The notes under the pieces were generated by a model. That model ran no database searches. It saw only the letters and a program-made list of their open reading frames with translations, and was not told where the DNA came from. From NCBI RefSeq assembly GCF_900545535.1, contig NZ_UQZN01000010.1: a stretch of DNA of 64,000 nucleotides. One strand, 5' to 3'. This document shows positions 7,346 through 34,989 of the stretch, one piece after another. The stretch comes from an uncultured Phascolarctobacterium sp. (GTDB lineage: Bacteria; Bacillota; Negativicutes; Acidaminococcales; Acidaminococcaceae). A program made the translations under genes and the position numbers. Position 1 is the first letter of the stretch; the number at the start of each line of letters is the position of its first letter.

Positions 7346-7506
7346 CAAGCAATCGCTTTTGGACACCTGCTTTCTTACCATATTAAATTTTAAAATTTGA
7401 TAAAGTCAGCTTATTCATAATAAATTTTAAATAAACTATACAGTCATTATAAACTTCATGCTTTTTGTAGTCAAGCAAAAATTCTAAAATTCACTTTATT
7501 TCTTCA

Positions 7507-11875: not shown

Positions 11876-14800
11876 TTAGAAACTATATTCCAGCGTTGTG
11901 TAATACATACGACCGGCAAGCGGATAGAAAGAAGCCGTCTTAGGTCCATAATACATACCGGTAGTGATGAAAACTTCCTTACCTTTATCAAAAACATCAT
12001 TGACGCCGGCGCTTAAACGCCATTTTTTATCAAATTTATATTTGACTCCCAAATCAACGATCGAATAAGAATCGCGCACGTCTATTGCATTGGCATCGCC
12101 AGAATCAGTACCACGCAAGATCTCCTGATCGGTATAACGGTATTCTCCGAAAACGTTCAGTTTGTCACCGGGGAACAGATAATCAACTCTGGCGCTGACG
12201 ACCCATTCAGGTACAAAAGATGCTCCGCCTTGCGCCCAGTTATAGTTATAACCCAAACCGTTACCCACTTCTTTACTTTTCTGCCATGTTGCTGCCAAAG
12301 CCAGGTTCAAGCGCTGCCATTTCATATTATGAGCCAGTTCAAGGCCATATGTTTCAATATTACCTGTCGGGCAATAACAACTTAATCCATCTCCGCCACG
12401 CGGTGTCCACAGTACAAGCTGGTTATTTGCTTTGCGCTGATACCAAGTAAGGATTGTATCCGTATCAGCTCCGGCCAGCTTGCCCTGCCAGTTCAGGCTG
12501 AAATCGAACTGACTGCCTGTTTCCCATAAGCCATTATCAATATTCCCGCCTTTACCGGCAACAGTAAAGACATAGTTTTGCCCAACAAAGCCGCCATCAC
12601 CAAAGATTTCGTAGAAGTTGGGATGCCTGTTATAAGTACCCCAGGTAGATTTAAAGCTCCAGTGGTCGTTGAGCTGCTTCTGCAGCGCCACGCCACCTGA
12701 ATACATCCAGCGGCTATCAGCATCGCCCAAATCACCAAGTCCTTCCATCTCTACTTTATCGGCACGCAGGATCGGTGTCAGCTTAAAATCGCCATCATCA
12801 TTGAGGGTAATAGTGTCCTGCAAGGTCAAATGATATTCACGGTTATTATATTTGGAAAGCATTTTTCTAACGGTTCTATTAACACCAGTTTGACTATCAA
12901 TTTGTTCCTGCGTAAGATCCCATCTGTTGCCATTAGCATCCATAGTTTCACGAGTATAATCCGCATTGAATTCCAGCAGATGGTTGCTGCCCAGCTTCAT
13001 CGCCGTATTCAGATTGCCGTTCCATTTTTTAGAACGCCAGGTTCCCCATAATTCACCCGGCAAATAATCGTTCTCATCCCTTTTTGCAAAAGGATCACCT
13101 GTTATTATTCCATTTTTTGTATCCTCTATTTGCCTGTAACCGCCTATATTAGTATAAGTTTTTTTGCTGTCCAGATAGGCAATATGCCACCCCAGATCAA
13201 GGTTGCCAAGCGTATCGCGACGCCCGATCAAAAATTCTTTATAATCAATATCCATATCAGCATCGAAATAGCCGGAATTTAAATAAGGAATTACATAGGT
13301 TCTATTTACTGCCCTGGCAAGCCCTTCATGCATCTTTTTCCAAACACCTTTAACTGTCCAGTGATCATCCTGCCATTTAAGCATGGCATTATTATTCTGA
13401 TAACCGTTACTTTGGCGTTTGTAAGTGCCTGCAAGTACATTATTTTGGGTATTACTGCTCTGCGGCCAAATATAATCAAAATCTCCATGCCAGATATCAC
13501 GGGCATAGGTAGCAAGCAGACTGCCGCTGCCAAGCGGCATGCTGTATTCATAGGTACTGCTGTAGCCGCCATAGGATTTGACGCCCTGGGTGATATGCCC
13601 GTGCCCTTCGTTGGGCTTTTTAGTGATGATATTGATAACACCGCCTAGTGGCGCACCGGCAAAACGAGCCGGTACATAACCGCGATAGACTTCGATGCGT
13701 TCAATATTATCAGCCGGGATCGCCGACAGATTGACTGCCGCATCACCGGTCAGGTTCATCTGCACGCCGTCCACATAGACGCTGACCTGCGCAGCCGTTG
13801 ACCCACGTACACGCGCTACAGTATAATGTCCGACGCCATTAAGCCGCTGCACGAATAAGCCAGGCACTCTGTCCAGAAGTTCCGGCAGGTTCTTCTGCTC
13901 ACCCTCGAATTGTGCCGGATAAATAACGCTGACCTGACCCGGGCTGAGATTCTTTTCCCAGTCGGGACGTTTGGCTTCAACAGTCAGCCCGCCCAGCTCA
14001 AACTCGCCCATACCGCCGGTGACTGTGCCGCTGACGCTGCCCGTATCATCACGGACAACACTGCTGCCCGCCTCGCCCATATCATAAACAGCCCGGCTGT
14101 CAGCACTTCCGCTTTCAGCAGCAACACTCTGCTGCGCCTGCTGCATCTGCGGCACCTGCACGTTGCCGACCTTGGGCGCCTGCCCCACTACCACGGTGGG
14201 CGCATTGGCTTTGGCAAAGCCGCCACCGTTTACAGACGGCTCCCCGCCTGAAGCATTTACTTTAGCCGCTTTGCTGCCGCCGCTGCCGAAACCGCCCCAG
14301 CTGAAGTCCAGCCCGCCGTTGATGCTCCATTCGTTGCCTACGTCGCTGCCGGTAGTTTTGATAAAATCAAGGTTCAAGGCAGCATTGGGTGAAAGTTTTA
14401 CTTTGCCGCCCACGTTCCATTCCCACCAGCTGTCGCTGCCGCCAACCGTTTCAACCAGTCTGTTTAAAGCCCCATAGCTTTGGTGCAGCTTTTGCCCGCC
14501 GGCAAACTCGTGTCCCCAGCTGACGCCGGCATAGATGTTGCCTTTGTCGCCGATATTTTTACCGGCTTTCAGCCCCAGCTTGCCAATGGCAGTATCATAT
14601 CCCTGTTCGTGTATGCCCAAGCCGTTAGTCAGTTTATAGCTGCTTTCATCCACATGGCCCACATACAGGGATACGGAAGGTTCCCAGAACCAATTAGAAC
14701 TAAGTTCATTGCGCTTGCCGTACTGCGCGCCGATACCGTAGGCCCAGGTACTGTTATCGCCTTTGACCTTGCCGATGCTGCCGTTGCCAGTATTACCGGT

Positions 14801-17074
14801 AAAGTGATAATCATTTTTAAGTTTAAAGGCGTTGACCCCCAGGTCGATAAAGTGCCCTTTGTCGCCCACCCAGCTGCTGTAAACGCCTACGCCATAGCTG
14901 TCCTGCTCACCTTTACCTGCAGCTGTAGTGCTTTTGCCGTCGATCTTGCTGGCATAAAAACCGGTATAGACCTTACCGCCATAGAATTTTTTGCTCAACA
15001 GCTTATCATAACCGACCTGAAAGCCGTTATAAGACTGGTTGGTGCTGCGGGCATAAGCCGCCTTGGCGTCAAATTTGCCGTGCCAGACATCGGCCCATAA
15101 ATTCTCGCGCAGCTCGCCGGCCAGTCCGCTCTCATCATGCTGGGGCCCATTGCCGCCAGCTTCCTGGCGGTTCAATCTTCCGCCGTGCAGGTTTTCGCTG
15201 CGGCGAAAGAGGCTGAGGTTATTGGCTTTGACAAAATTATTCTGCACCGTGCTGTTTTCGGAAACACTTTTACCGCTTTCCGCCATTTCACCCGTATCAG
15301 CATAAGTATAACCTTTTAAATACCACACTGTACCCTGCAAATTATCATAACCAATGATATTCCCCTTATCATCAGTTATGGCCTTGCTATCCGCAGTTTT
15401 AAAATAATTTTCATATTTGCCTACTTCCGGCGTGATTTCATAAACACTAAAAATACCGTCCGCCAAACTGGTTTGACCTGTTACTTCAAAATTATCAGCG
15501 CCATTATAAATACCGATCAAAGCATTAGGAACGATAATATTTCCAAGTTGATTCTTTACTTCATTCGGATTTTTCCATTCACCGAAAAGCGAAGTACCGT
15601 TGACTTCCGGTACATAACCGAGTTGAATATAGAGATTATTTTTAGCATCATCACTGCCATTATTTTTGGCGGCGTCTGTAATGTATACATTGTCATTATC
15701 ACGTACTGGAACGACCCCACTACCTCCAATAAGCGGTTCATAATTTTGATATACGCCAAGCCTGAAGGCAGTATTATCCGCCAGCTTCGCATCATTTACA
15801 AATAAGCTTCTGTTTATTTTGACCTTATTAGTAGCAATGGTTCCTTGTGATGTATCACTTATATATTCAACATTAATCGTATTAGCATTTCCTTCGCTGT
15901 CAGCGCCCTGCAGCACATACGGAGCTTGCCCATCAATACTGTTAGTATTAAGATAGCTCAAATCAATTACACTGCCAGATTCTGTAGTTAATTCACCAAC
16001 TGATATGACAGTCGTAGGAACATTCTCTATGGGTTTAGGACTGTCCAATTCATAATCATTATCCAGCTGCGTATTATCAGTAAAAGAAGAATCAACATCC
16101 GGATCACTCGCACCTATTGCTGTTTTACCGTCTTCAGTTACCCAATTTTTGTCACCCGGTGAATAATCGCCATTCAAATTACTGCTAATAGTTACAGCTC
16201 TGTCCAGCGGTGTCCACCTTTCACCAGCCGCTACTGACTTTTGGTCATAGGTATAACTTTTGCTGCCTCCAGAAAAAGAATCTCCCGTACCTAACTGAAA
16301 TCTTGTTTGTATACTCTCTATAATATCTGGCGAAGCAAAATTAAGACTCGAATCATTCATATAATTTAATACATTGGAGGCAGTAGTATTATTAATCGCA
16401 GCTTTTACCGTAGCTAACTCATCATCACTCAACTTAATATAACACATACTTGGCAGGTATTTTGTCATCCACTCTTGTATCTTCGCATCATCATTATTTT
16501 CAATATATCCATACAGCTCTCTTTGCGCATCAACAGTTGTCATTCCAGTATTTTCATTTAAAAAATTCATCATTTGCGTTCCGGTTATCGCTAAACAGTC
16601 CTTGCTAACATTTCCAACTCCAAGAACTTTATAATAATAAGCGCCGCTGTCAGCATCTCTTATTTTAATTGCAAATGCATTTGCACCCTCAGGAACAAAG
16701 CCTGTTCTCATCAGCGTACGCCATAAAATGCTATTCCATGAGTTTTTTGAGAAACTTGGTTTTACATTACTATTGGTCAATCCTTTATTGGCACCATCAG
16801 GATCAAGTCTAATAGTTTTATATACATTAACAATATTATTTTGCACTATACTAGAATCAGAAAAATTAATAAATGTATCTTGTCCGCCAACCTTATTAGT
16901 ATTGACAGCAGTATTATCATAGTATTGTACGGCATTTCTGCCCAGGGTTTCCGCCGCAAATGCACACTGGGGGGGGGCAAACGGTGCGATTACGCCTAAC
17001 GATAAGGCAATAGCCGCCGGTAATACTTGTAATGTTCTTTGCCTTCTCAAATTTTTCTTCATCATATCCTCCAC
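11876..17074 (-). CDS. 1732-aa fusion ORF: signal peptide, autotransporter passenger (~aa 45-620), autotransporter beta-barrel (~aa 621-926, ends FSW), Gly-rich periplasmic linker, and TonB-dependent receptor plug plus 22-strand barrel (~aa 1041-1732, ends TTLEYSF)
   Basis: Continuous frame with no stop. Extended signal peptide MKKNLRRQRTLQVLPAAIALSLGVIAPFAPPQCAFA. Translocator-like region LWADVWHGKFDAKAAYARSTNQSYNGFQVGYDKL...NLDFIKTTGSDVGNEWSINGGLDFSW. TBDR plug LPELLDRVPGLFVQRLNGVGHYTVARVRGS...VYVDGVQMNL...IERIEVYRGYVPARFAGAPLGGVINIITKKP with C-terminal aromatic F. Approximate nt split: autotransporter part 14297..17074, TBDR part 11876..14296. The start is a GTG at 17074 or the ATG pair just downstream. 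Confidence 0.7.
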   Translation of the reverse strand: MEDMMKKNLRRQRTLQVLPAAIALSLGVIAPFAPPQCAFAAETLGRNAVQYYDNTAVNTNKVGGQDTFINFSDSSIVQNNIVNVYKTIRLDPDGANKGLTNSNVKPSFSKNSWNSILWRTLMRTGFVPEGANAFAIKIRDADSGAYYYKVLGVGNVSKDCLAITGTQMMNFLNENTGMTTVDAQRELYGYIENNDDAKIQEWMTKYLPSMCYIKLSDDELATVKAAINNTTASNVLNYMNDSSLNFASPDIIESIQTRFQLGTGDSFSGGSKSYTYDQKSVAAGERWTPLDRAVTISSNLNGDYSPGDKNWVTEDGKTAIGASDPDVDSSFTDNTQLDNDYELDSPKPIENVPTTVISVGELTTESGSVIDLSYLNTNSIDGQAPYVLQGADSEGNANTINVEYISDTSQGTIATNKVKINRSLFVNDAKLADNTAFRLGVYQNYEPLIGGSGVVPVRDNDNVYITDAAKNNGSDDAKNNLYIQLGYVPEVNGTSLFGEWKNPNEVKNQLGNIIVPNALIGIYNGADNFEVTGQTSLADGIFSVYEITPEVGKYENYFKTADSKAITDDKGNIIGYDNLQGTVWYLKGYTYADTGEMAESGKSVSENSTVQNNFVKANNLSLFRRSENLHGGRLNRQEAGGNGPQHDESGLAGELRENLWADVWHGKFDAKAAYARSTNQSYNGFQVGYDKLLSKKFYGGKVYTGFYASKIDGKSTTAAGKGEQDSYGVGVYSSWVGDKGHFIDLGVNAFKLKNDYHFTGNTGNGSIGKVKGDNSTWAYGIGAQYGKRNELSSNWFWEPSVSLYVGHVDESSYKLTNGLGIHEQGYDTAIGKLGLKAGKNIGDKGNIYAGVSWGHEFAGGQKLHQSYGALNRLVETVGGSDSWWEWNVGGKVKLSPNAALNLDFIKTTGSDVGNEWSINGGLDFSWGGFGSGGSKAAKVNASGGEPSVNGGGFAKANAPTVVVGQAPKVGNVQVPQMQQAQQSVAAESGSADSRAVYDMGEAGSSVVRDDTGSVSGTVTGGMGEFELGGLTVEAKRPDWEKNLSPGQVSVIYPAQFEGEQKNLPELLDRVPGLFVQRLNGVGHYTVARVRGSTAAQVSVYVDGVQMNLTGDAAVNLSAIPADNIERIEVYRGYVPARFAGAPLGGVINIITKKPNEGHGHITQGVKSYGGYSSTYEYSMPLGSGSLLATYARDIWHGDFDYIWPQSSNTQNNVLAGTYKRQSNGYQNNNAMLKWQDDHWTVKGVWKKMHEGLARAVNRTYVIPYLNSGYFDADMDIDYKEFLIGRRDTLGNLDLGWHIAYLDSKKTYTNIGGYRQIEDTKNGIITGDPFAKRDENDYLPGELWGTWRSKKWNGNLNTAMKLGSNHLLEFNADYTRETMDANGNRWDLTQEQIDSQTGVNRTVRKMLSKYNNREYHLTLQDTITLNDDGDFKLTPILRADKVEMEGLGDLGDADSRWMYSGGVALQKQLNDHWSFKSTWGTYNRHPNFYEIFGDGGFVGQNYVFTVAGKGGNIDNGLWETGSQFDFSLNWQGKLAGADTDTILTWYQRKANNQLVLWTPRGGDGLSCYCPTGNIETYGLELAHNMKWQRLNLALAATWQKSKEVGNGLGYNYNWAQGGASFVPEWVVSARVDYLFPGDKLNVFGEYRYTDQEILRGTDSGDANAIDVRDSYSIVDLGVKYKFDKKWRLSAGVNDVFDKGKEVFITTGMYYGPKTASFYPLAGRMYYTTLEYSF

Positions 17075-17445
17075 ACCAACTTAAAAATTCCAGCATTTCT
17101 GTTTTGCCGTTTCTAAACATGATCATCGTTTAGAAACTGTCATTTTACAGCAGTATGTAAGTACGCGTCACTACTCGCATTTTTACCTGCTGCTGTAAAA
17201 TTCGGACACTTTCAGCAAAAAATAACGCCGCATTTTCTACCAGTCCATTCGGTGAAAGTGCAGCGTTTGTTTTTACCAAACAGTCTGCTCCGCTTTTCTG
17301 GTCGAAAATACTAAAATTTCCGCGCTGCTGGTTTCAGCGCATAATCATAGCGTCCGCAGAAATATTTGCCTGACAAAACGCCAAACCTAAATATCTCTGC
17401 AAAATTTTCTCCCAGTCTGTCTACGCAGGCTGTTCAAAAGATAGA

Positions 17446-17570
17446 ACCAGTCAGCACTCTGACTCAAGATCATTACTCCAGCATCCCTTAGTGAAAGGAC
17501 TGCAATGCTGAAGCTCCCTAATACAGTTGCGTGACAGCGCCGGATTCACACCGGACTTCCCTATAAAACT
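17446..17570 (-). promoter_or_regulatory. Cobalamin riboswitch (proximal copy of a tandem pair) upstream of the autotransporter-TBDR gene
   Basis: Minus RNA UAUAGGGAAGUCCGGUGUGAAUCCGGCGCUGUCACGCAACUGUAUUAGGGAGC...GCAGUCCUUUCACUAAGGGAUGC...GAGUCAGAGUGCUGACUGG contains the conserved core and B12-box-like elements. Confidence 0.7.
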
Positions 17571-17744
17571 TTGGATTTCTACATTCCAAAATACCCAGCT
17601 CTAATTTTTCATTTTTGAAATTGTCAATGGACACGTCATTTATTACTCCAGCACTTGTGACCGCAAGCATGGATGCCGCCACCCCAGCGGCACCACGCCC
17701 AAAGGTCTGAGTTGAGTGGAGTTTGCAGGCTATGACTGAACCTG

Positions 17745-17829: not shown

Positions 17830-17945
17830 TCTCTCGCAGTAGTTAGACTGTCAGGCTGATTGCTGGCTTTAGGGCTAAACCCCTTACAGCGCCGGGAGCG
17901 CAGCGGAATTGCACCGCTTCTCATTTTGTGATTACCACCTGATAA
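17830..17945 (-). promoter_or_regulatory. Cobalamin riboswitch (distal copy of the tandem pair)
   Basis: Minus RNA AUCAGGUGGUAAUCACAAAAUGAGAAGCGGUGCAAUUCCGCUGCGCUCCCGGCGCUGUAAGGGGUUUAGCCCUAAAGCCAGCAAUCAGCCUGACAGUCUAACUACUGCGAGAGACAG matches the conserved core. Confidence 0.7.
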
Positions 17946-17966
17946 ACATTACTATTTTCTTGATAT

Positions 17967-18156: not shown

Positions 18157-19449
18157 CTAGTTTTTATAAAAAATTTTACCTGTCATTTTTAAATAAATAA
18201 ACTGTTTCAGCTGGCTGAATGTGCTTTGCATAAAATAAGCCCAGCCGTTGATGCCAGCATAGGTTTCCCTGTTAATATGCAGTCTGGCTGCAGGCATTGC
18301 CAAATTAAAATAAATTGTTTTTTCGATGTCGCCTATTTCTATCCGTTCTCTATCGGTGCCGCAAAAAATCTGATATTCATCGCTATCCAGTTGGGGCAAG
18401 TCGTCAGCATACTGCCACTTGTGATAATTGTTTTCATCTGCATTCCGGCAGCTGTTACTGATCCGTACAAAACATTTTTCCGGCAGCGGCAGATCATAGG
18501 CGGCAGCTTGTGCCAGGCTGCGGGCACAGCTGCTGCCAGCCGAAATAACCATCCGTTTGAGCTGCCAGTTATTATCATAGTCGCGCAGTGCTGCAAAGGT
18601 ATCAAAAATGCTGTCCTGAAAGATTTTTATTTCTGTCAGCAGGTAGTCTGCATTGCAGTCCAGATCCAGTGCTGCCGTTATTTTCCGCAGCCATTCAATA
18701 CTTTGCGAAAAGCCATAGGGTGTGTCGGCGATAATATATTTCTGCTGCAGCTTTTCCTGCAGCCATTCGGCAACGGGCAGTCCCAGTTCTTCATTTATTA
18801 CTACGTTCAGTTCTGCTTTGCCTGTCTTTTTTAAATCTTCCCAGTCTGTACCATTATCAAGCAGGCAGAGGTTTACTTTTACGCCTACACTTTTTAGCAT
18901 TCGTTTAAGTTCCAGCATATCGCCTTCCCAGTTTGGATAGCAGGTGCTGCTGCCTATCAGGTTGACTGATGAAGGTTCAGGTGCAGCAGGCTGCAGGCCG
19001 CTGCATTCAAGTAACTCTATCACAGCCCTGCTCCAGCCGTTCCAGTATTCACCGCTCAATCCTCCTGCATCCACGGCAATTATCGGGCAGCCCGGCTGCA
19101 GGTTTTTACAGACGCCTTTGATGTCGTCGCCGATCAGGCTTAATGAACAGCTTGTAAGCACTGCCAGCAAAGAATTTTGCGGGGATGCGCAGGCTTCTGC
19201 TATTGCCTGTTTAAGTTTTTCACTTACGCCGTATAGAAGGTCTGGTTCCAAAACTTCTGAGCAAAAAAGCCTTTGTTCATATTCTTTAACTGCGTTTGCC
19301 AGTTCGCGTTCGGCCAATACGGCGCACCAGCGGGGGCAGTTCATAACTACTTTACTGCCTGTAACGCTTAAAAAAGCAGAGGCCGCACCTGTCATTTGGC
19401 AATAGCCTTGGCAGGGCTGCCAGCGTTTTAATTTTTCATCTGTTTTCAT
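18157..19449 (-). CDS. Nitrogenase component-1-like oxidoreductase, NifK/NifN/BchB-like subunit (Oxidored_nitro family)
   Basis: 430 aa. N-terminal Cys cluster QPCQGYCQMTGAASAFLSVTGSKVVMNCPRWC. LTSCSLSLIGDD and CPIIAVDAGG motifs typical of NifK/NifN-type subunits. Overlaps the D-like gene by 14 nt. Confidence 0.75.
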   Translation of the reverse strand: MKTDEKLKRWQPCQGYCQMTGAASAFLSVTGSKVVMNCPRWCAVLAERELANAVKEYEQRLFCSEVLEPDLLYGVSEKLKQAIAEACASPQNSLLAVLTSCSLSLIGDDIKGVCKNLQPGCPIIAVDAGGLSGEYWNGWSRAVIELLECSGLQPAAPEPSSVNLIGSSTCYPNWEGDMLELKRMLKSVGVKVNLCLLDNGTDWEDLKKTGKAELNVVINEELGLPVAEWLQEKLQQKYIIADTPYGFSQSIEWLRKITAALDLDCNADYLLTEIKIFQDSIFDTFAALRDYDNNWQLKRMVISAGSSCARSLAQAAAYDLPLPEKCFVRISNSCRNADENNYHKWQYADDLPQLDSDEYQIFCGTDRERIEIGDIEKTIYFNLAMPAARLHINRETYAGINGWAYFMQSTFSQLKQFIYLKMTGKIFYKN

Positions 19450-20716
19450 ATACCAGTTCCCTTTGCTCAGTTAATGTTTCAGCTAATTTCAGCAAAAAGT
19501 TTTCGCTTCCTTTTCTTCCTACTCTTCTAAAGCCAATGCAGTATTGCGGACGCGAGCATTTTTTAGGTGCAGTTGTTATCACAAGATCAACAAAAGTATT
19601 TTGCAGCTTTGTTTCGTCGTAATAGTTTGTTTTTAAATTTTTTCCCAGCAGCTTTTTATGCATCAGCTGTTCGGCAGTAGTCAGTTCGTCGCAAAAAATT
19701 ATTCCCTGCAGCTTTAAGCCGGCTTCTTCCAGCATTTTTATTATCGGCAGCGGTTCAAAATATCTCTGCGGCAAACTAATAGCCAAAATATAGCTCTTGC
19801 CCTGAAGCAAGGCAGTGATGTTCTGTAAAAATTCGCTGTAGGCCAGACGTTCTTTTTCTACTGCTTTTATAGCTTCTTGCTTTCTGCCTAAAGCAGTTCC
19901 AAGGTCCAAAAGCCATTCATATGTTGCTTCAAGGCTGCTGGGGATACCTAAATTTATGTAGCTTATCTGCATGGTTTCGGCAAACTGTCTGGCAAAAACC
20001 CGCACTGCTTCAAGATTTTTGGGGATGAATCCTATAGCTGTAACTGCACTGACTGCGGCAGTTTCCTGCAGCTGCTTTAAAGTCATGCCGCCAGGAGGAT
20101 AATAGATATTTTTAAATCCGAACAATCCTAACAGTCTGTTGATTTCATCGATCTCACTTTCGCGGCTGAAAATGACGTTGATACCAAATACTGCCAGTGC
20201 CGCTGGATTTTTAGCAGTACCGCTTAAAGGATAGACGAGCTTTTGACATAAAGCTTTGGTGACTGACAGTACGCCGTCCACCGCTTTTTGATTCATAAAG
20301 CCTGAGCCTTCGACACATAAAACAGGTATACCTGTACTGGCTTCAGTTTCTCTGCAGATCGCTTCAACATCGTCGCCAATAACTCCGGCGGCACAGCCTG
20401 CCGCTACGATGATATATTCCGGTTTCCGTACTGCGGCAATGTCCAGCAGACATGCTTTTAAGAGTTTTTCGCCGCCAAAAATAGCTTCTTTATCTGCCAG
20501 CCCGGTAACAAACAGGTTGCTGCCATCACATTGGCCGTTAAAATATTTATTAGTGGTAATTTTAAGGCGCATTTCCCAAAATGCGTTGTGTGCGATGTGC
20601 GAACATGACTTGGGAGCATGAAAGACTATTGAAGCCCGAGGATTATAAGCGGCAGCCAGAAAAACACTCATCAAGTTACAGTGAATAACTTTTTTCCGTT
20701 CTGAATTTCTGATCAT
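19436..20716 (-). CDS. Nitrogenase component-1-like oxidoreductase, NifD/NifE/BchN-like subunit (Oxidored_nitro family)
   Basis: 426 aa. KVIHCNL...HAPKSCSH (HGPxGC-like P-loop Cys motif). VAAGCAAGVIGDD (the IGDD motif of NifD/E). 4-nt overlap (ATGA) with the upstream binding-protein gene. Confidence 0.75.
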   Translation of the reverse strand: MIRNSERKKVIHCNLMSVFLAAAYNPRASIVFHAPKSCSHIAHNAFWEMRLKITTNKYFNGQCDGSNLFVTGLADKEAIFGGEKLLKACLLDIAAVRKPEYIIVAAGCAAGVIGDDVEAICRETEASTGIPVLCVEGSGFMNQKAVDGVLSVTKALCQKLVYPLSGTAKNPAALAVFGINVIFSRESEIDEINRLLGLFGFKNIYYPPGGMTLKQLQETAAVSAVTAIGFIPKNLEAVRVFARQFAETMQISYINLGIPSSLEATYEWLLDLGTALGRKQEAIKAVEKERLAYSEFLQNITALLQGKSYILAISLPQRYFEPLPIIKMLEEAGLKLQGIIFCDELTTAEQLMHKKLLGKNLKTNYYDETKLQNTFVDLVITTAPKKCSRPQYCIGFRRVGRKGSENFLLKLAETLTEQRELVYENR

Positions 20717-21696
20717 TTTTTCGTCCCATTCGTATTTTCATAAACTATTGCATATAATTTTTCTATTCCTGCGGCGGCGTGGTGTGACAGGCAATTGACA
20801 TAGCTTTGCGGTATAACTACAGCCTGACGTTTTTGAATGGCGGTTATACCGGCATAGGCCGGGTCATTATATATTTCTTCCAGTTGTTCTTCGCTGTTTT
20901 TATATGCCCCGCCTTGCGACCATGAGCCAAGCAGTAGAAATTCCGGGTTGGTTTTGATAACTTCTTCTTTACTCAAAATACGGCTGGTGCCTGCATAGTC
21001 TTTGGTAACAGGGCGTGCCTGTTCATAGCAGTCGTCGATGCCGGCCGCAGTCATGATGTCGTTATAGATGCATCCTGCTCCGCCTATAGCTCCAAAGCGC
21101 AGGAAAAGCAAGGCTGAGCGGCGCTGCTGCGGTGGTATGGCTGCTACTTTGGCCTGCATTGCAGCGAGCCTTGCCTGCATATTTTTTACGATCTGCTCTG
21201 CCTGTTCGTTTTCGCCTACTGCGGCGCCCATACTGCGTACTAAGGCAGGGATTTCGTCGAGTCTGGAGATGTATTTAAAAACATATACTTTTATGCCTAC
21301 TTCTTCCAGGCTGTCTATATATTCACGCTTGGCAGTGTCCGGCACAAAAAGCAGATCAGGTTTCAATGCTACTATGGCTTCAAGGTTATTTTCTACTATG
21401 CCCTGTACGTCTGCAGCTTGTTTATAAGCCATCGACAGCCCCTGGTCGTGTACCCATTTACTGACGCCTGCTATTTTTTGATGCTCAACAAGGTCTAGCA
21501 ATATTTCATCGGCATAAACAAAGCTGCTGGCAATATGTTCAGGCTTTTTTTGAAAGCTGATTTCTTTACCGCGGAGGTCGCGTACTGTGTAACTTTGTTG
21601 CTGCTGCCCGCTAGATGGCAGCAGGTCAATATTTTTACTGCAGCCGCTTAGGCAGAAGGCCAGCGTCAATAGCAGGTACAGCAAATATTTGGGCAT
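20713..21696 (-). CDS. Periplasmic substrate-binding lipoprotein, class III (BtuF/FecB/HmuT-like)
   Basis: Lipobox LSGCS. Paralog of 4793..5770 and 31958..32947 (shared motifs LKPDLLFVPD, VYVFKY). Confidence 0.8.
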   Translation of the reverse strand: MPKYLLYLLLTLAFCLSGCSKNIDLLPSSGQQQQSYTVRDLRGKEISFQKKPEHIASSFVYADEILLDLVEHQKIAGVSKWVHDQGLSMAYKQAADVQGIVENNLEAIVALKPDLLFVPDTAKREYIDSLEEVGIKVYVFKYISRLDEIPALVRSMGAAVGENEQAEQIVKNMQARLAAMQAKVAAIPPQQRRSALLFLRFGAIGGAGCIYNDIMTAAGIDDCYEQARPVTKDYAGTSRILSKEEVIKTNPEFLLLGSWSQGGAYKNSEEQLEEIYNDPAYAGITAIQKRQAVVIPQSYVNCLSHHAAAGIEKLYAIVYENTNGTKK

Positions 21697-21734
21697 CGAC
21701 GGTCATCTCCCTTCGTTCAAAATATACTCTTTAT

Positions 21735-23552
21735 TTAAAAGGTGCGTTCATAGGTCAGCATCCAGTTGCGTTCTTCCAGCAATGCGCCGGAAGTACCGTT
21801 GCTGGAACCGGTTCTGATATCGTCTCTGTTCAGCAGATTATACACAGTCAGTCTTAAAGTGTCTTGATCTGTCAGTTTATGCGCAATGTTCATGTTAATG
21901 TCAAGCATCGGTTTGGTTCCATTTACGCGGCCTGCCATATAGTTGGCAAAAATATTGGCTGAAGTTTTTGCAAGTTTATAGCCTACGCCAGCGTTCAACC
22001 CCAGTTTAAAATCAGTGCGTTCCCATTCTCCGCTGCCAATGGTTTTCTGCTGCGGGTTGGCATAGGAAACTCCTAAATTGTAGCTGAATTTCTGGCTCAA
22101 AGCTTTTTCATAGCTCAGTTCAACGCCGGTATTACGGTATTTTTCGGCATTTTTATAAATATTAAGGCCAGTGGCACTATCTTTGGCACGATAGATCCTG
22201 TCATCGATTTCCATATGGAAAACATTTAATTTAAGCAGATCGCTGTCGGTAAATTTCTTTTTCCAGCCCAGTTCATAGTTCCAGCCGCTTTCTGCTTTCA
22301 GGTCAGGGTTCATGACCTGGGTAGATGTGCCCCATTGTTCGTTGACGTTGGGAGCGCGCATCGATTTATTGATGTTCAGGTAAAGATTTTCATTTTCTCT
22401 GAGGTTTTGCAATATTTGAAGCTGCGGGCAGAATTTACTGCCTGATTCTTCTACATATGCTTCGCGGGCGCCTAAAAACAGTTTTGTTTTGGCACCCAGC
22501 TGCGTTTCGGTCATGAAGAATACTGCACCGCTGTCACGTTTGGCGCTTTCAGCTCCGACAGTATTTTTGGTGTCTTCATTTTCATAGTTGGCGCCGGCCG
22601 TTAAAACAACCTTTCCCAGCTGCCATTTATTTTGAATATCGGCACCGATATTATGACCTTTTTGATGTGTAGTAGTATTGTATTTCCAATCTCTGCTGCG
22701 CATATATACGGCAGCGGATAAATCATTATTGTTATAGCGCATTTGCCCAAAATGATATTGGATATTGCTATGGAAACCAGGTGCATATTGCCCATTATTT
22801 AATTTGGAGCAGTCGGAAATCTTTTTGCTGTACATATATTGAAACAGCAAATTATCGGTTATATTATATTGCAGATTCAAGCTGTCTTTTTCCAGGTTAT
22901 CTCCCATATAAAAACTTGTAGGATTGGACTGATACACTTTGCCGCGCCCTTTGGATTGCTGACGGCTGTAACTGATTTGTAATTTATCGGTCGCAACATT
23001 GACTGCGCCTTTGAACTTATTTTTATCGCCCCAGCCTGCAAGGACTTTGGTTTTGCCCTGTTTTTTATTGGTTATGATATTGATGACACCGGCACTGGCG
23101 TTAGAGCCATATAATACTGCCGAGCCGCCTTTTACTACTTCGATCCTGTCAATGATGTCGGTCGAAATGGATTCAAGATCATAGTTACCGTCCTGATTGA
23201 GCGGAATGCCGTTGACTAAAATAGCAACATTATCCTTGGATACGCCTCTAAAACCAATATATGTGTTGCCCGTAGGCGAAGCAGTCAGCGTAAAGCCGGG
23301 TATATTTCTAACTACTTCCATGACATTGTTGGCACCCAAGCGTTCAATTTTTTCCTGGTCAAATATTTCCGTTGCCGCAGGGATCTCAAGGTCACGTGTT
23401 TCATAGCGCGTAGCAGTAACTAACACAGGGTCCAGTTCAAAGCGTTCTATCTCGTTTTGTTGTTTGTCAGCAAATGCTGTACCCCCCCAGATGACACTCC
23501 CGCTTATCAATGCTACCATCAGTGTACTTTTACTCAAACTTTTCTTCATCAT
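21735..23552 (-). CDS. TonB-dependent receptor (BtuB-like)
   Basis: SD AAGGAG before MMKKSLSKSTLMVALISGSVIWGGTAFA. TonB-box region LDPVLVTATR. Plug and barrel motifs. C-terminal LTYERTF. Confidence 0.85.
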   Translation of the reverse strand: MMKKSLSKSTLMVALISGSVIWGGTAFADKQQNEIERFELDPVLVTATRYETRDLEIPAATEIFDQEKIERLGANNVMEVVRNIPGFTLTASPTGNTYIGFRGVSKDNVAILVNGIPLNQDGNYDLESISTDIIDRIEVVKGGSAVLYGSNASAGVINIITNKKQGKTKVLAGWGDKNKFKGAVNVATDKLQISYSRQQSKGRGKVYQSNPTSFYMGDNLEKDSLNLQYNITDNLLFQYMYSKKISDCSKLNNGQYAPGFHSNIQYHFGQMRYNNNDLSAAVYMRSRDWKYNTTTHQKGHNIGADIQNKWQLGKVVLTAGANYENEDTKNTVGAESAKRDSGAVFFMTETQLGAKTKLFLGAREAYVEESGSKFCPQLQILQNLRENENLYLNINKSMRAPNVNEQWGTSTQVMNPDLKAESGWNYELGWKKKFTDSDLLKLNVFHMEIDDRIYRAKDSATGLNIYKNAEKYRNTGVELSYEKALSQKFSYNLGVSYANPQQKTIGSGEWERTDFKLGLNAGVGYKLAKTSANIFANYMAGRVNGTKPMLDINMNIAHKLTDQDTLRLTVYNLLNRDDIRTGSSNGTSGALLEERNWMLTYERTF

Positions 23553-23712
23553 CAGCTCTAACTCCTTGCCATTTAATGTGTAATACAGTAAAATCATATT
23601 AGTCACTATTATGCACGTTTTTTCTTTTTGATAATTTATTTAATTAGCTTTTGTTACTGTATTACTTATCTAATGATAAAGTATATAATGCTTATAGTGT
23701 CAAGGTGGTTTT

Positions 23713-24552
23713 ATGCAAAATATATCAAAAAATTATTTTACGCCCGGGGAACTTGCCAAATTAACTGGCATTTCCAAGCAGATTCTTCTTTATTATGATA
23801 AAAACAATATTTTTTCGCCTACCTTTGTCGATGACAAAGGTTATCGTTATTATTCTTTATCGCAGTATTTTTCTTTAGAAATTCTTATAACCATGCGTAA
23901 ACTGGATATTCCGCTTCAAGACATCATGGCGTATCTGCATAATAAAAATCTTCAGGACCTTAAAAAGATCTACAGTCAAAAATTAAGCGAATATCGATAT
24001 AAAATAAAGCAGCTGCAGCAATACGAAGCGGCGCTTGAAAAACGTCTGACCCGTTTGGATAAAATAGAAAACATACGCCTTGATCAGATAATGCTGTCTG
24101 AAGAGCCTGAACAGTTATATTATCAAAGCAAGGAAATTTTTTTAACCCAACCCACTAAAATACGGATTTTAAAAATTGCAGAGTATATGCTGCCGCATTT
24201 ACGTTCCCAGTTTTTAGAGGATTGTGTTATTGGTTTTTCGTTAGACCAGAATGAATTTCTTGACTGCGGCAAATTATCCAGATACAGGATCTTTGTACAG
24301 ATAGACGACTGTAATATAGATGCTGTTGCTGATATTCTCTGTAAAAAATCCGGCTTATATCTTTCGTTGTATTGTAATTGCCATTATGGGCTTATTGATG
24401 ATGACATCAAATTGAAAATTAAAAATTTCCTTGAACTGAATCATTTGAAGCCTTGCAGTGATATTTTTGTATTTCCTATCAGGAATTATTGGTCTGCCAC
24501 TACTACTAAAGAAGAAATTTCCCAGATTTGTCTGCAGGTAGAATATATTTGA
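23713..24552 (+). CDS. MerR-family transcriptional regulator with a C-terminal GyrI-like/effector-binding domain (BmrR/TipA-type)
   Basis: N-terminal HTH (YFTPGELAKLTGISKQILLYYDKNNIFSP...DDKGYRYYSLSQYFSLEILITMRKLDIPLQDI), coiled-coil dimerisation helix and a ~150-aa C-terminal ligand-binding domain. Divergent to the TBDR operon with only 106 bp between starts. Confidence 0.75.
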   Translation: MQNISKNYFTPGELAKLTGISKQILLYYDKNNIFSPTFVDDKGYRYYSLSQYFSLEILITMRKLDIPLQDIMAYLHNKNLQDLKKIYSQKLSEYRYKIKQLQQYEAALEKRLTRLDKIENIRLDQIMLSEEPEQLYYQSKEIFLTQPTKIRILKIAEYMLPHLRSQFLEDCVIGFSLDQNEFLDCGKLSRYRIFVQIDDCNIDAVADILCKKSGLYLSLYCNCHYGLIDDDIKLKIKNFLELNHLKPCSDIFVFPIRNYWSATTTKEEISQICLQVEYI

Positions 24553-24762: not shown

Positions 24763-24806
24763 AAAAGCAGCAGGCGGCGCCCAAGCGCTGCCTGCTGCTT
24801 TTTTTA
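24763..24806. terminator. Bidirectional Rho-independent terminator between the merR-like gene and the convergent TBDR gene
   Basis: AAAAGCAGCAGGC ggcgcccaagcgct GCCTGCTGCTTTTTTT. Confidence 0.7.
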
Positions 24807-26702
24807 AAAGGTTCTGGTATAGGTTATTTTCCAGTTAAATGGTAAATCAAGGTTACCATATCTGTTAGAATAGTTATCCCTGTCAAACAAATTATTCATC
24901 GTCAGGGTTATGTTGTCATTCTTAGTCAAATCATACGAAGTATTCCAGGTCAAACGGTTTCTTGACGGGACGTCATGCCCGCCGTAATATTCCCTGTCGC
25001 CTAAATATTTATATGTAAGGCCGCTTGTAAGCTTGCTGATAGAATAAAAAACCGAAGCTGATACATCTATCCTGCCGTCATCCTGCACCCATTTGGGGTT
25101 GGCAGCGGAAGGATCTTTTACTTCGGGGTTGCCATAGCCAATTCCCAAAGAATAGCGCCATTTATCATTTACATTATGGGTAAATTCTGCTTCGATACCG
25201 GTATTTCTAAAATCGCCTTTGTTTATGGCATACTGTTCACCGGTACCGGGATCTTTATCGCTCCAGCCTATTTTATTTTCAAAATCCATATGGAAGACTG
25301 CAAGCTTGATGCTTTTGTTATCGTAGATTTTTTTGATACCTGTTTCATAGGTCCAGCCTTCTTCGGGCTTTAATGTACCGGCCGCGGCTTTTTTGCCATA
25401 GTATGAATCTACTGTTGGCATTTGGAAAGCTTTGCCGATGTTTATGTACCACGAGGTATTGTCGTTGATTTTATACAGGGTTTGGAACTGCGGGTTCAGT
25501 ATATTTTCGCTTTTTACCGGGTCGTCGATTATTTCGCCGCGCAGCCCCAGGGTAGCACTGAATTTATCGCTGAACACGTTGTTATACGAAAGGTAGATGG
25601 CGTTACTGGTTCTGTGGGCTTTATTGGCTTTGGTAACCAGATTTTCATAGTTTTCGCGTCTTAGGCTGTAGCCGGTTATAAGGGTATTTTTTCCCAGTTT
25701 CCAGGTCTTTTGTACGTCACCGATATAGCTTGATAAATCGGCTGATGAGCTTACAGGGCCTGGTGTGGCTGCGGTAAAGTCGTAGCCTTCAGTACGGCGG
25801 TAGTTATAACCTACTATGGCTTTGATGCCGTTAGATTTGCCATCGTAGGTCAGTCCTGTAGTAATGCGTTTGTCGTCATAACGATAATTATATTTTTTAT
25901 AGACTGAGCCTACTTTTTTGGCATCGTTATTGCTGCCACGGGTAATATTGCCGTCCTGATAGATGAAAGTAAAACCGATCTCATCTGTCAGCGCGGCGGA
26001 GATCCCGGCTCTGTTTTTCTGTCCTTTGCCTACCCACCAGTCGGTAGACGAGCCTTCCGGATAAGCGTTGCTGTGGGTAAGCTTGTTGGAATATTCTTTA
26101 GATGCGGTTACGATAAGTTTTTCACCCGCATAAGTAACGCCGTAATCTTTATAATAGTTGCCGACGGTTCCTTTTACTTTGACCTGAGTTTTGCCACCTG
26201 GCTTTTTAGTAATAATATTAACTACGCCACCCATAGCTTCGCTGCCGTACAGGGTTCCAGCGGCGCCTTTTATGATTTCTATTTGCTGTACCATATCTAT
26301 GGGGATACCGTCTAAGGAGTTATAGTTTTTAAGGTTCATGGGGATACCGTCTACCATGATCAGGGTGCCACGGTCGTAGCCGCGGATAACGGTGCGGCCT
26401 GAACTGAAACCAAAATCCTGACCGGCGTCGCCGTAACCGGTACTTGTTAGGCCTACTTGATGTTCGATAGCGTCAAAAACGTTCTTATAGCCGGCTTCTT
26501 TGATATTTTGTTCAGTAATGATATTAGTGGTTGCCGGTGTATCCAGGTCTCTGGTTTCTGTTCTTTGAGCAGTTACGATCATTGGGTCGAGCGTAAAGGC
26601 CTGATTTGGTTCCTCAGCATGTACTGCAGTACCCCCCCAGATGACATTGCCAGTTATCAGTGCTACCATCAGTACACTTTTACTCAAATTCTTTTTTGAC
26701 AT
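24804..26702 (-). CDS. TonB-dependent receptor (BtuB-like), controlled by a cobalamin riboswitch
   Basis: SD AAAGGAAG before MSKKNLSKSVLMVALITGNVIWGGTAVHA. TonB box LDPMIVTAQR. Plug (IIKGAAGTLYGSEAMGGVVNIITKK). C-terminal KITYTRTF. Confidence 0.85.
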   Translation of the reverse strand: MSKKNLSKSVLMVALITGNVIWGGTAVHAEEPNQAFTLDPMIVTAQRTETRDLDTPATTNIITEQNIKEAGYKNVFDAIEHQVGLTSTGYGDAGQDFGFSSGRTVIRGYDRGTLIMVDGIPMNLKNYNSLDGIPIDMVQQIEIIKGAAGTLYGSEAMGGVVNIITKKPGGKTQVKVKGTVGNYYKDYGVTYAGEKLIVTASKEYSNKLTHSNAYPEGSSTDWWVGKGQKNRAGISAALTDEIGFTFIYQDGNITRGSNNDAKKVGSVYKKYNYRYDDKRITTGLTYDGKSNGIKAIVGYNYRRTEGYDFTAATPGPVSSSADLSSYIGDVQKTWKLGKNTLITGYSLRRENYENLVTKANKAHRTSNAIYLSYNNVFSDKFSATLGLRGEIIDDPVKSENILNPQFQTLYKINDNTSWYINIGKAFQMPTVDSYYGKKAAAGTLKPEEGWTYETGIKKIYDNKSIKLAVFHMDFENKIGWSDKDPGTGEQYAINKGDFRNTGIEAEFTHNVNDKWRYSLGIGYGNPEVKDPSAANPKWVQDDGRIDVSASVFYSISKLTSGLTYKYLGDREYYGGHDVPSRNRLTWNTSYDLTKNDNITLTMNNLFDRDNYSNRYGNLDLPFNWKITYTRTF

Positions 26703-26909
26703 ACTCAACTTCCTTTCACTACATTTTTATTATTGAAATAAAGACATTTCCTGTACTCATTCTTTATGACCGCACATTATTTGCCTTTACTTGCAATCAC
26801 CCAAAATAAAAATACCTTCTGCGCTAAGGCAAAAGGCATTGAACAGCTTAATTCAAAATAAAAGAAGCCGATAACATTACCTAACTGTCTCACGCAGCAG
26901 TAAAGTAAT

Positions 26910-27055
26910 TATCAGGCAGTTCTTCTGACTCAAGTTCATCATTCATCCAAGCCTTCCCAGATAAATTCCAGTGGCATATTTTGGATGAACTCACTTTTAC
27001 AGCGACGGGATCGTGTGGGTTTTACACCCAGCTTCTCTATTAAGACCTGTGTCAC
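26910..27055 (-). promoter_or_regulatory. Cobalamin riboswitch
   Basis: Minus RNA UUAAUAGAGAAGCUGGGUGUAAAACCCACACGAUCCCGUCGCUGUAAAAGUGAG...AUGCCACUGGAAUUUAUCUGGGAAGGCUUGG...GAGUCAGAAGAACUGCCUG, with a canonical GCCACUG B12 box. Confidence 0.8.
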
Positions 27056-27169
27056 CTGATAATATTCATATACATTTATTTTGCAAGTATACTATAAATA
27101 ATTTTACAATGCAATCTTTTATTTTTATTTGTTATTTAATTTTCTTTTTCAATAACTATTTTGTTGCAT

Positions 27170-29380: not shown

Positions 29381-29420
29381 TGGCAGGGCCTATAAGTGCC
29401 CTGCCATTTTTTATTTTTTG
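29381..29420. terminator. Rho-independent terminator shared by convergent genes
   Basis: GGCAGGGC ctataagt GCCCTGCC TTTTTTATTTTTTG. Confidence 0.65.
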
Positions 29421-31961: not shown

Positions 31962-32947
31962 ATCTGTTTTGCCTGCTTTATCGATCCAATTTTTGCAAAA
32001 TATTCTGGATATGTTTTTTGAGCTATGTCTAAGATACCGTCACCTATATATTGCGAAGCCGCATATCTGTAGCGATCTTTTATGATAATGACATTATTAT
32101 TTTTGATTGCTTTGATGCTCTGCAGTGCCGGGTCTTTTAAAACTTCTTTTCTAAAAAGTACGGTATCGCCTTCCTGGGTCGAACTGTAATCTGGAAACAT
32201 CAAAACGTCAGGGTTGACTTCTACTATTTTTTCTTTGCTTAGATGTTCACCACGAACAAGGCCCGCTACGGCAGCGCCGTTGATTACGCCGGCATTGATA
32301 CAGATGTCGTTGAACAGACCTTCTGCACTTCCAAAAACCCCCAGCAGCGAATACCCCATCAATATCTTTTTTTCTTCTGCCGGTATTGCACCGATCACGT
32401 CTTTTACAAGCTTTGTTTTATGATCCAATTCGTCAATTATTCTGTTTCCCTGCTGCTGTTCATTTACAGCCACCGATAAATTAATTATTCTTTGACGTAC
32501 CATGTCCAGCGTGGTAGGCACTTTGGTTATATATACCTTTAGCCCCACATCTTTTAAGGCTTGGATAAATGCTGTGTTTGAGTTTTCCTGCACGATCACA
32601 AGGTCGGGTTTAAGGGCAAGAATTTGTTCTACGCTTACTTTTTGCGGAAGTTTCAGGGGAATCTGCGCAGCTTTATCGATAATCAATGATGTTTTAGGAT
32701 CAGCAGCTGGTTCCGAGATTGCTGCAATGCGTTTTAAAGGAACCATATCTGTGAGTATTTCTTCAAGACTGAGCGTTGTGGCATAGATTCGTTTAGGGGA
32801 TTCGCTAAAATGCAGAATATTCCCTTTGTCGTCAGTTACCTGATACTGAGTTTGAACTGCCGTGTTTTCAATAACAGTGTTTGGTTTTTCAAAGCTGCAG
32901 CCTGTTACCGCTAGTATCATGATTATTGCTAAAATAAAACTGCGCAT
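31958..32947 (-). CDS. Periplasmic substrate-binding lipoprotein, class III (BtuF/FecB-like), paralog
   Basis: Lipobox VTGCS. Motifs LKPDLVIVQE and KVYITKVP. Confidence 0.8.
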   Translation of the reverse strand: MRSFILAIIMILAVTGCSFEKPNTVIENTAVQTQYQVTDDKGNILHFSESPKRIYATTLSLEEILTDMVPLKRIAAISEPAADPKTSLIIDKAAQIPLKLPQKVSVEQILALKPDLVIVQENSNTAFIQALKDVGLKVYITKVPTTLDMVRQRIINLSVAVNEQQQGNRIIDELDHKTKLVKDVIGAIPAEEKKILMGYSLLGVFGSAEGLFNDICINAGVINGAAVAGLVRGEHLSKEKIVEVNPDVLMFPDYSSTQEGDTVLFRKEVLKDPALQSIKAIKNNNVIIIKDRYRYAASQYIGDGILDIAQKTYPEYFAKIGSIKQAKQI

Positions 32948-34884: not shown

Positions 34885-34989
34885 CAAATTCAACTTCCTT
34901 TCAATTTTCAATTTACTTTCACCTTGCTTTAAAAGTGTTAAAAAATAGAAAAGCCCCCTTTTCCAAAAAACAGATAAGGAGGAATAGAG

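Follow-up and report, generated by a model that had tools for sequence, protein, structure and literature searches.

What would a nitrogenase-like enzyme do in an operon for uptake across the outer membrane? This question is raised by a stretch of 64,000 nucleotides from an uncultured Phascolarctobacterium sp. (contig NZ_UQZN01000010.1), analysed over its whole length and hereafter called the window, in which two genes of the NifD/NifK family (named here D-like and K-like) share an operon, locus A, with a TonB-dependent receptor and a substrate-binding lipoprotein. We lean towards the answer that the D/K pair is an ATP-driven, Fe-protein-dependent reductase acting on an imported corrinoid-type tetrapyrrole, its Fe protein being encoded elsewhere. 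According to the list of open reading frames (ORFs), locus A is read on the minus strand from 23606 to 18157 in the following order:

21735..23606, minus strand: TonB-dependent outer-membrane receptor, longest ORF 623 aa, with Pfam Plug and TonB_dep_Rec barrel.
20713..21696, minus strand: class III (BtuF/FhuD-type) substrate-binding lipoprotein, 327 aa, Peripla_BP_2 at 2e-25.
19436..20716, minus strand: NifD-like (alpha-type) nitrogenase-like subunit, 426 aa, PF00148 at E 1.4e-40.
18157..19449, minus strand: NifK-like (beta-type) nitrogenase-like subunit, 430 aa, PF00148 at E 1.5e-50.

The binding-protein and D-like genes overlap by 4 nt, and the D-like and K-like genes by 14 nt. This four-gene anatomy, proposed in a preliminary description made from the sequence alone, is borne out by the ORFs and by Pfam. 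In the receptor gene, direct reading finds an ATG at 23552 downstream of an AAGGAG site, and the true start probably lies there, giving a protein of 605 aa in agreement with the gene callers on other contigs. The binding protein carries a lipobox (LSGC). An identical D-like protein, annotated at NCBI as 'nitrogenase component 1', is present in 112 blocks of public assemblies, and the gene order of locus A recurs on 23 of the 24 longest metagenome contigs that bear it; the one with a source name comes from a human gut metagenome.

The assignment of the pair to the NifD/NifK family, also made in the preliminary description, stands. Against a PF00148 gathering score of 28.6, the D-like and K-like proteins reach 140 and 173 bits in locus A, and 156 and 165 bits in a second such module, locus B, so that all four belong to the superfamily. 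We compared them with the NCBIfam equivalog models of NifD, NifK, NifE, NifN, BchN, BchB, BchY, BchZ and CfbD, whose cutoffs range from 268 to 1229 bits. Their scores of 15–99 bits (at most 83 on every model for the locus A D-like protein) leave every cutoff far out of reach. Identity with NifDK is rejected (49–64 bits against 653 on NifD, 21–38 against 427 on NifK), and so are NifEN (83–99 against 505 on NifE, 18–35 against 327 on NifN), the BchNB/ChlNB proteins of DPOR (at most 88 against 490 on BchB, at most 37 against 420 on BchN) and the BchYZ proteins of COR (at most 55 against 529 on BchZ, at most 21 against 425 on BchY). CfbD is rejected as well, by its score (about 33 bits against 268) and by the distinct K-like partner that always follows the D-like gene here. 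The pair is thus below the cutoffs of the families that the preliminary description had named as examples of where it might fall, and the cluster cysteines, whose absence on alignment it had also considered, are present.

Indeed, the Cys and IGDD motifs quoted earlier are all found in the translations, and we followed the cysteines through about 80 homologues per subunit from related loci (80 D-like, 82 K-like). D-like C13, C38 and C108 are 97–100% conserved. In the K-like protein, C17, C42 and C101 never vary, and in the alignment to the NifEN fusion 9i0g_A they fall on the cluster cysteines of its NifE part. The pair therefore holds the three plus three P-cluster-type cysteines of nitrogenase. 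Of the K-like hallmark cysteines named in the preliminary description, C17 and C42 are among these three, but C13 and C38, the first cysteine of each CxxxC, are not, being conserved in just 27% and 5% of the members. At the column of NifD-Cys275 and of the MarD L-cluster cysteine, the alignment shows no cysteine in the window proteins (Gly/Phe/Ile) or throughout the close family; most of the more distant relatives of 480–510 aa hold one. A counterpart of His442 is likewise missing, no histidine being among the residues at least 90% conserved in the C-terminal third of the D-like homologues. The signature that emerges from this alignment is six P-cluster-type cysteines without M- or L-cluster ligand, and the cavity of the iron-molybdenum cofactor (FeMo-co) would thus probably be an organic-substrate pocket, as in DPOR, COR and CfbCD.

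The same cysteines separate the pair from other nitrogenase-like (NFL) groups, as described in a July 2026 review of nitrogenase-like systems (PMC13474568). Group VI, of Elusimicrobia type, fills no more than four of the six P-cluster cysteine positions, and isethionate reductase (Group IV-F) departs from the P-cluster cysteine pattern (PMC13474568); since all six positions are filled and conserved here, both are rejected on these published descriptions. Groups IV-D and IV-E are uncharacterised, and the text of the review names no Negativicutes or B12-linked clade for them (PMC13474568). With these two groups compared by the text of the review only, the sequences place the D/K pair in what appears to be an uncharacterised, mostly Negativicutes clade of the NFL superfamily.

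Two observations concern the wider family. A sub-clade of about 415 aa (P0076, P0077, P0079, P0084, P0085, P0086 and P0091; 192–242 bits) has a cysteine one column before NifD-Cys275, in the motif LCSRY, and a second cluster may thus persist in part of the wider family. Among the next-nearest relatives, of 700–770 aa (P0038, P0101, P0112, P0116 and others), many are single chains with about 300 N-terminal residues fused ahead of the D-like domain; in P0038 (742 aa), the fusion with a domain annotation, the N-terminal domain is NifH-like.

Which solved enzymes are the nearest? A profile of the D family finds R. rubrum MarD as its best match (111 bits), followed by 9p1x_A ('nitrogenase protein alpha chain', 106 bits), the NifEN fusion (104 bits) and Clostridium NifD (92 bits), with DPOR BchB at about 22 bits. 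For the K-like protein, the best match in the PDB is MarK (9d9u_C, 68 bits); structures 9D9U and 9FMG are those of MAR (PMC13474568). The AlphaFold2 (AF2) model of the locus A D-like protein (pLDDT 88) is ranked by Foldseek as by the profile, MarD coming first with a template-modelling (TM) score of about 0.6 and 14–19% identity. The modelled fold is that predicted for a nitrogenase component 1 (MarD/NifD/NifE folds), and the nearest solved relatives by sequence and fold are MarDK, NifDK and NifEN, not DPOR or CfbD. Identity with MarDK itself is rejected, as GFCY of MarD aligns with GFIP of the D-like protein and identity is 17–19%.

This ranking of MarD and MarK as best sequence and fold matches is what speaks for a reductase acting on something other than a tetrapyrrole, for example by C–S cleavage as in MAR or isethionate reductase, and standing beside transport genes by chance; Group IV NFL enzymes are also often linked to sulfur metabolism (PMC13474568). 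We consider such an enzyme highly improbable here, since the identity is so low, the L-cluster cysteine is absent, no sulfur-metabolism genes are present in any locus examined, and the corrinoid and chelatase context recurs across genera. Exceptions to tetrapyrrole chemistry are nevertheless more numerous than supposed: the statement of the preliminary description that all characterised non-nitrogenase members except Mar reduce a tetrapyrrole is outdated, isethionate reductase and Nfa being exceptions too (PMC13474568).

A reductase of this type calls for an Fe protein. We found a NifH-like Fe protein by tblastn in 65 of 82 related loci. Its two cluster cysteines (equivalents of NifH C97 and C132) are 100% conserved in 58 sequences, and it scores 384 bits on the NifH model and the same on that of CfbC. 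As an Fe protein of its own is the rule in this family, it is very unlikely that the D/K pair functions without one. Within the window, three NifH proteins of the family used as tblastn queries yield no match below E = 7, a NifH profile has no match at E ≤ 10 in the six-frame translation, and the 200-bp gap between the locus A K-like gene and the tandem riboswitches downstream of it shows no similarity to a NifH remnant. Neither nifH nor nifB nor nifEN lies within the 64 kb, and tblastn and profile searches thus agree with the preliminary description, which had seen no NifH and no nif accessory genes there.

A neighbour-joining tree of the D-like proteins shows how the family arranges this partner. 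It has two clades. Of 64 clade-2 cases, 58 have NifH immediately upstream. Clade 1, which holds both pairs of the window, usually stands behind a binding-protein gene or CobN, without an adjacent NifH; the latter abuts D/K in one clade-1 locus only (L005) and lies elsewhere in the locus in L001–L003, L014 and L017. L005 is the closest relative of locus A (67% identity for D, 66% for K and 88% for the receptor), and its operon, which reads receptor, binding protein, D, K and NifH, matches locus A in synteny and in the flanking riboswitches. NifH-less clade-1 pairs also coexist with NifH-D-K operons, L010 and L039 being in one metagenome-assembled genome and both types being on one contig in L014. 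Given this coexistence, the window is most economically explained by a shared Fe protein whose gene lies elsewhere.

It could be supposed, on the other hand, that the NifH-less clade-1 pairs are not reductases at all but Fe-S proteins that bind, scaffold or chaperone the imported ligand in the cytoplasm, as NifEN holds a cofactor precursor. The lack of an Fe protein in the window and its adjacency in a single clade-1 locus fit such a role, and the PF00148 fold is akin to that of class III binding proteins. We nonetheless judge it very improbable, given that both clades strictly keep the six cluster cysteines, that the closest orthologous operon ends with NifH and that clade-1 loci share genomes with NifH-bearing clade-2 loci.

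Other electron-transfer genes are seen near some relatives. In Sporomusa ovata (L041, 12627..16451), a polyferredoxin, an HGD-D-like (HgdB-like) protein and a BcrAD/HgdC-type activase, that is, a second ATP-dependent electron-injection system, stand beside the nitrogenase-like genes. In L004 (5153..9391), a BcrAD_BadFG/DUF2229 protein of 1412 aa is encoded just upstream of a clade-1 D/K pair without NifH.

If the pair is a reductase, what does its neighbourhood say of the substrate? We scanned one genome per species and found 156 relatives. The best 78 loci, inspected for taxonomy, are almost all from Negativicutes (Phascolarctobacterium, Dialister, Selenomonas, Sporomusa, Veillonella, Succiniclasticum, Megamonas, Pelosinus and Anaerospora), and the few oddly named bins among the relatives are probably mis-binned. 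In addition, a search of 1.84 billion representatives yields only 106 clusters (50% identity) at E ≤ 1e-30. Counted by tblastn across the 82 related loci, the neighbours include a class III binding protein in 56, CobN in 37, the same MerR regulator in 36, a TonB-dependent receptor in 33, CbiZ in 23, a conserved His-rich protein of 106 aa also in 23, and ChlI in 14. The related clusters further contain ChlD, a FecCD permease, an ABC ATPase, CbiK and a radical SAM/SPASM enzyme. The CobN neighbour passes the CobN equivalog cutoff (985 against 822), and that of BchH too. CobN, ChlI, ChlD and CbiZ are all absent from the window. The 106-aa His-rich protein (L001, 4670..4990), also absent from the window, is found beside CbiZ or the MerR regulator and matches no family; it could be a metal or corrinoid chaperone.

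Cobalamin riboswitches mark several of these clusters. They lie directly upstream of NifH-D-K in Sporomusa ovata (L041, 8825-9008, with the NifH start at 9169), in Anaerospora hongkongensis (L040) and in Phascolarctobacterium UMGS706 (L050), and cluster L001, of Selenobaculum type, has one between its K and receptor genes. The riboswitches, together with the neighbours CbiZ, CbiK, CobN and those of BtuF/FecCD type, tie the family to cobamide or tetrapyrrole acquisition and not to nitrogen or sulfur metabolism.

The presence of a class I chelatase, an NFL reductase and a radical SAM/SPASM enzyme in one cluster could also mean that the family synthesises a new reduced tetrapyrrole cofactor, as BchHID with BchLNB or CfbA with CfbCD do, the uptake genes supplying only a precursor or the metal; the same logic has been applied to Group VI NFL (PMC13474568). 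This is distinctly unlikely for the window, where the D/K genes overlap the binding-protein gene of an uptake operon with no biosynthetic genes nearby, and repression through an AdoCbl (adenosylcobalamin) riboswitch points to the cobamide pool rather than to a new cofactor.

This riboswitch belongs to locus B, a complete paralogous module with the gene order of locus A, which extends from 34911 to 29411 with overlaps of 4 and 8 nt:

32980..34911, minus strand: TonB-dependent receptor, a paralogue with 31% identity to the locus A receptor.
31958..32947, minus strand: class III binding lipoprotein, 27% identity to the locus A protein.
30684..31961, minus strand: NifD-like subunit, PF00148 at 2.2e-45, 38% identity to the locus A D-like protein.
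29411..30691, minus strand: NifK-like subunit, PF00148 at 3.3e-48, 41% identity to the locus A K-like protein.
35221..36051, plus strand: divergent MerR/BmrR-type regulator, 31% identity to the locus A regulator.
35006..35130, minus strand: AdoCbl (cobalamin) riboswitch of the operon leader, matching RF01482 with its conserved core aligned (50.2 bits, gathering score 50; E 2e-8 in a local scan).
35121..35148, minus strand: near-consensus sigma-70 promoter, TTGATA-16-TATAAT (11/12), abutting the riboswitch.

All five protein parts of the two modules have thus diverged to a similar degree (27–41% identity), which fits a duplication of the whole module followed by co-divergence or co-specialisation.

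The corresponding control elements of locus A are:

23713..24552, plus strand: divergent BmrR-type MerR regulator, with helix-turn-helix (HTH), coiled coil and GyrI-like effector domain (Pfam MerR_1/MerR).
23673..23703, minus strand: candidate operon promoter, TTGACA-19 nt-TATCAT, 10 nt from the regulator start codon, found by direct reading.

One regulator with a MerR HTH is divergent to each module, and they are 279 and 276 aa long. The AF2 model of that of locus A (pLDDT 85) matches BmrR over its full length in Foldseek (TM 0.66, E 5e-16), and both regulators are therefore probably small-molecule sensors rather than metal-sensing MerRs. At locus B, direct reading also gives a candidate promoter, TTGACT-19 nt-TATTAT, which abuts the regulator gene. 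A spacer of 19 nt is a hallmark of MerR-activated promoters, and it accompanies the BmrR-type architecture here. These promoters rest on direct reading, because a promoter scan with spacers of 16–18 nt excludes those of 19 nt; with a seed of 6, an inverted-repeat MerR operator is found in neither promoter region. With its sigma-70 promoter in addition, the locus B operon may have two promoters under different control. Elsewhere in the family, the MerR-bearing loci L024, L046 and L066 have no riboswitch, so that the two kinds of control look largely alternative, locus B having both.

Several points weigh against a corrinoid reductase, and we gather them here. The riboswitch of locus B barely reaches its gathering score. 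The leader of locus A has none, even at E ≤ 1, and an Rfam scan finds none in seven other clade-1 loci, so that the direct B12 link of the clade to which the window belongs rests on locus B and L001. The Fe protein is missing from the 64 kb. The nearest solved relatives, MarDK, NifDK and NifEN, have non-tetrapyrrole substrates, and to our knowledge no corrinoid-salvage step needs such a strong reductant. Finally, as far as their sequences indicate, the receptor and the binding protein cannot be placed as BtuB and BtuF over haem or siderophore types. The preliminary description had called the receptor 'BtuB-like': TonB-B12 (TIGR01779) is its best NCBIfam match, but marginally so, with 138 bits against a cutoff of 599.7 and with the siderophore and hemin receptor models level. 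The BtuF equivalog model also stays below its cutoff (40 bits against 234), and matches in the PDB (about 30 bits for BtuF, 50 bits for binders of iron complexes) leave the specificity unsettled.

Haem or another metalloporphyrin could instead be the imported ligand. In such a case, the NFL reductase would reduce the macrocycle to aid metal release or reuse of the porphyrin, in an anaerobic metal harvesting like that of Bacteroidota Hmu, in which the CobN-like HmuS removes iron from haem; CobN homologues are reported to be capable of de-chelation (PMC12583661). The recurrence of CobN-ChlI-ChlD with the family would suit this, as would the level scores of the locus A receptor on hemin, siderophore and B12 models, the lack of riboswitches in locus A and the seven other clade-1 loci, and the GyrI-like sensor domain, which is suited to planar aromatic ligands. 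However, the riboswitches that are found are cobalamin-specific and directly ahead of NifH-D-K or of a receptor, CbiZ and CbiK are corrinoid and cobalt enzymes, CobN is above the cobaltochelatase equivalog cutoff, and haem-specific genes were not seen in the loci. We thus regard haem as unlikely.

The corrinoid proposal of the preliminary description, in which a reductase remodels or scavenges a corrinoid or porphyrin taken up from outside, is in turn supported by the AdoCbl riboswitch of locus B, by the riboswitches upstream of NifH-D-K in three genera and by the recurrent CbiZ, CobN-ChlI-ChlD, CbiK, BtuF and FecCD neighbours. This support is genomic, not biochemical. On the corrinoid reading, loci A and B would be substrate-specific uptake-and-processing modules of human-gut Phascolarctobacterium. 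The TonB-dependent receptor and the periplasmic class III lipoprotein would import the ligand, and the D/K pair would act in the cytoplasm. The divergent BmrR-type MerR activator probably senses a small organic ligand, perhaps the imported molecule itself, and AdoCbl would additionally shut off locus B through the riboswitch. A NifH/CfbC-like ATPase, presumably encoded elsewhere in the genome, would pass electrons with ATP hydrolysis to the D2K2 core via an interface Fe-S cluster, and the organic substrate reduced in the pocket would be the ligand that the cognate receptor and binding protein bring in, most likely a corrinoid or a tetrapyrrole close to it. By low-potential reduction the scavenged molecule would become usable, in a step that precedes or accompanies tail removal by CbiZ and metal insertion or removal by CobN-ChlID and CbiK. 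A product feeding the cobamide pool would explain the repression by AdoCbl.

Gut corrinoids are a limiting, traded cofactor, and Phascolarctobacterium and its relatives need the B12-dependent methylmalonyl-CoA mutase to convert succinate into propionate. It is tempting, though we advance it only tentatively, to see here the first nitrogenase-like enzyme of B12 metabolism, one that converts scavenged or otherwise unusable corrinoids into usable cobamide precursors under riboswitch and MerR control, in modules diversified by ligand in gut Negativicutes. The known chemistry of corrinoid salvage is hydrolytic or of transferase type (CbiZ, CbiR, CobS). If our proposal is true, ATP-dependent low-potential reduction would be a new reaction class in cofactor scavenging, and an orphan branch of the nitrogenase superfamily would gain a function and a testable substrate class. 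The modular layout of receptor, binding protein, sensor and enzyme, and the existence of culturable carriers (Veillonella, Sporomusa, Selenomonas, P. succinatutens and Selenobaculum), make the question directly testable.

The surroundings of the two modules point the same way, the window being a corrinoid island with five cobalamin riboswitches, four or five TonB-dependent receptors within 35 kb, TonB-ExbBD and a CbiR-like gene. Its further features are:

26708..24804, minus strand: third TonB-dependent receptor, between modules A and B, syntenic in L005.
27074..26898, minus strand: cobalamin riboswitch of the third receptor, 109 bits.
28..1896: fourth receptor, partial.
7196..7385, minus strand: cobalamin riboswitch, 103 bits, directly ahead of the PF01261 gene.
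5774..6766, minus strand: 330-aa PF01261 protein (AP endonuclease 2 / xylose-isomerase TIM barrel).
2932..5770, minus strand: genes for a class III binding protein, ExbB, ExbD and TonB, downstream of the PF01261 gene.
17433..17613 and 17837..17957, minus strand: tandem cobalamin riboswitches, 42.6 and 43.8 bits, directly downstream of the locus A K-like gene.
11876..17074, minus strand: ORF of 1732 aa, with an autotransporter beta-domain at aa 659-903 and a complete TonB-dependent receptor, plug and barrel, at aa 1044-1692.
41373..41604, plus strand: three adjacent tRNA genes.

CbiR, the cobamide-remodelling phosphodiesterase of Akkermansia, is in the same Pfam family, PF01261, and often lies beside transport genes; the protein at 5774..6766 is a candidate CbiR. 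The tandem riboswitches, a pair also present in L005, stand behind a TTGACA-17-TATGAT promoter and upstream of the 1732-aa ORF, with a strong terminator-like hairpin after the first riboswitch and weaker ones after the second. In this ORF a Gly/Ser/Gln-rich linker joins the two domains, and on another metagenome contig a single gene of 1728 aa is found; the protein could be a surface corrinoid-capture device. From 42 to 64 kb, the window carries housekeeping genes: a pyr operon with a PyrK-type dihydroorotate dehydrogenase, carAB, ppdK, glyQS, recO, era, ybeY and phoH.

As to the literature, the preliminary description had considered the function undescribed, and we also found no description of it in the searchable literature, most subscription journals being outside this coverage; within the same coverage, nothing relevant links nitrogenase-like genes to TonB-dependent systems, CobN, CbiZ, the B12 riboswitch or a Negativicutes chelatase. 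The July 2026 review gives verified or proposed functions only for Groups IV-A, IV-B, IV-C, IV-F and V, leaving several NFL groups uncharacterised, and sees the main challenge of the field in giving functions to such orphan branches (PMC13474568). The terms TonB, corrinoid and Veillonella are absent from it, cobalamin/B12 and chelatases appear only under tetrapyrrole biosynthesis, and Negativicutes are mentioned only as likely MAR carriers (PMC13474568). What is new here is a nitrogenase-like enzyme in an apparently new clade and in a new genomic setting, probably also with a new substrate class.

How, then, does the system compare with those already known? MarDK (NFL Group IV-C; 9D9U/9FMG) is the best match of both subunits (profile 111 bits, Foldseek E 1e-18, TM about 0.6) and is likewise a D2K2-type pair served by a NifH-like Fe protein, with the six P-cluster-type cysteines in common. 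It differs in sequence (17–19% identity), in its L-cluster cysteine, replaced here (GFIPKN), and in length, the proteins here being about 90 residues shorter; its context is sulfur salvage, where the one here is corrinoid uptake and chelatase genes. DPOR (BchLNB/ChlLNB) and COR (BchXYZ), which form NFL Group V, also have no FeMo-co and reduce a tetrapyrrole in the former cofactor pocket, and their pairing with the class I chelatase BchHID parallels the gene set of NifH-D-K and CobN-ChlI-ChlD. Their similarity to the pair is nevertheless weak (on the BchB model, 88 bits where 490 are required; in the search with the D profile, about 22 bits), DPOR holds a single [4Fe-4S] cluster by three cysteines and one aspartate where six cysteines are kept here, and both enzymes are biosynthetic and outside uptake operons. 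CfbCD reduces a tetrapyrrole too, and the family Fe protein reaches 384 bits on the CfbC model, its score on NifH; CfbD, however, is a homodimer without a K partner, archaeal and biosynthetic, and its model gives about 33 bits against 268.

Among uptake systems, hmuYRSTUV of Bacteroidota comes close in its logic: there, in a gut anaerobe, a TonB-dependent receptor is combined with CobN-like and ChlI/ChlD-like proteins to process a tetrapyrrole taken up from outside. Nitrogenase-like proteins, a cobalamin riboswitch and CbiZ are missing from it, and the window itself is without CobN and ChlID. We know of no pathway of cobamide remodelling or salvage that has a nitrogenase-type, ATP-dependent Fe-S reductase. 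Cobamide uptake and remodelling (BtuBFCD, CbiZ, CbiR) nonetheless shares with the system described here its riboswitch-controlled receptors and binding proteins, CbiZ, which is adjacent in 23 related loci, and a CbiR-like PF01261 gene, which lies behind a riboswitch in the same window.

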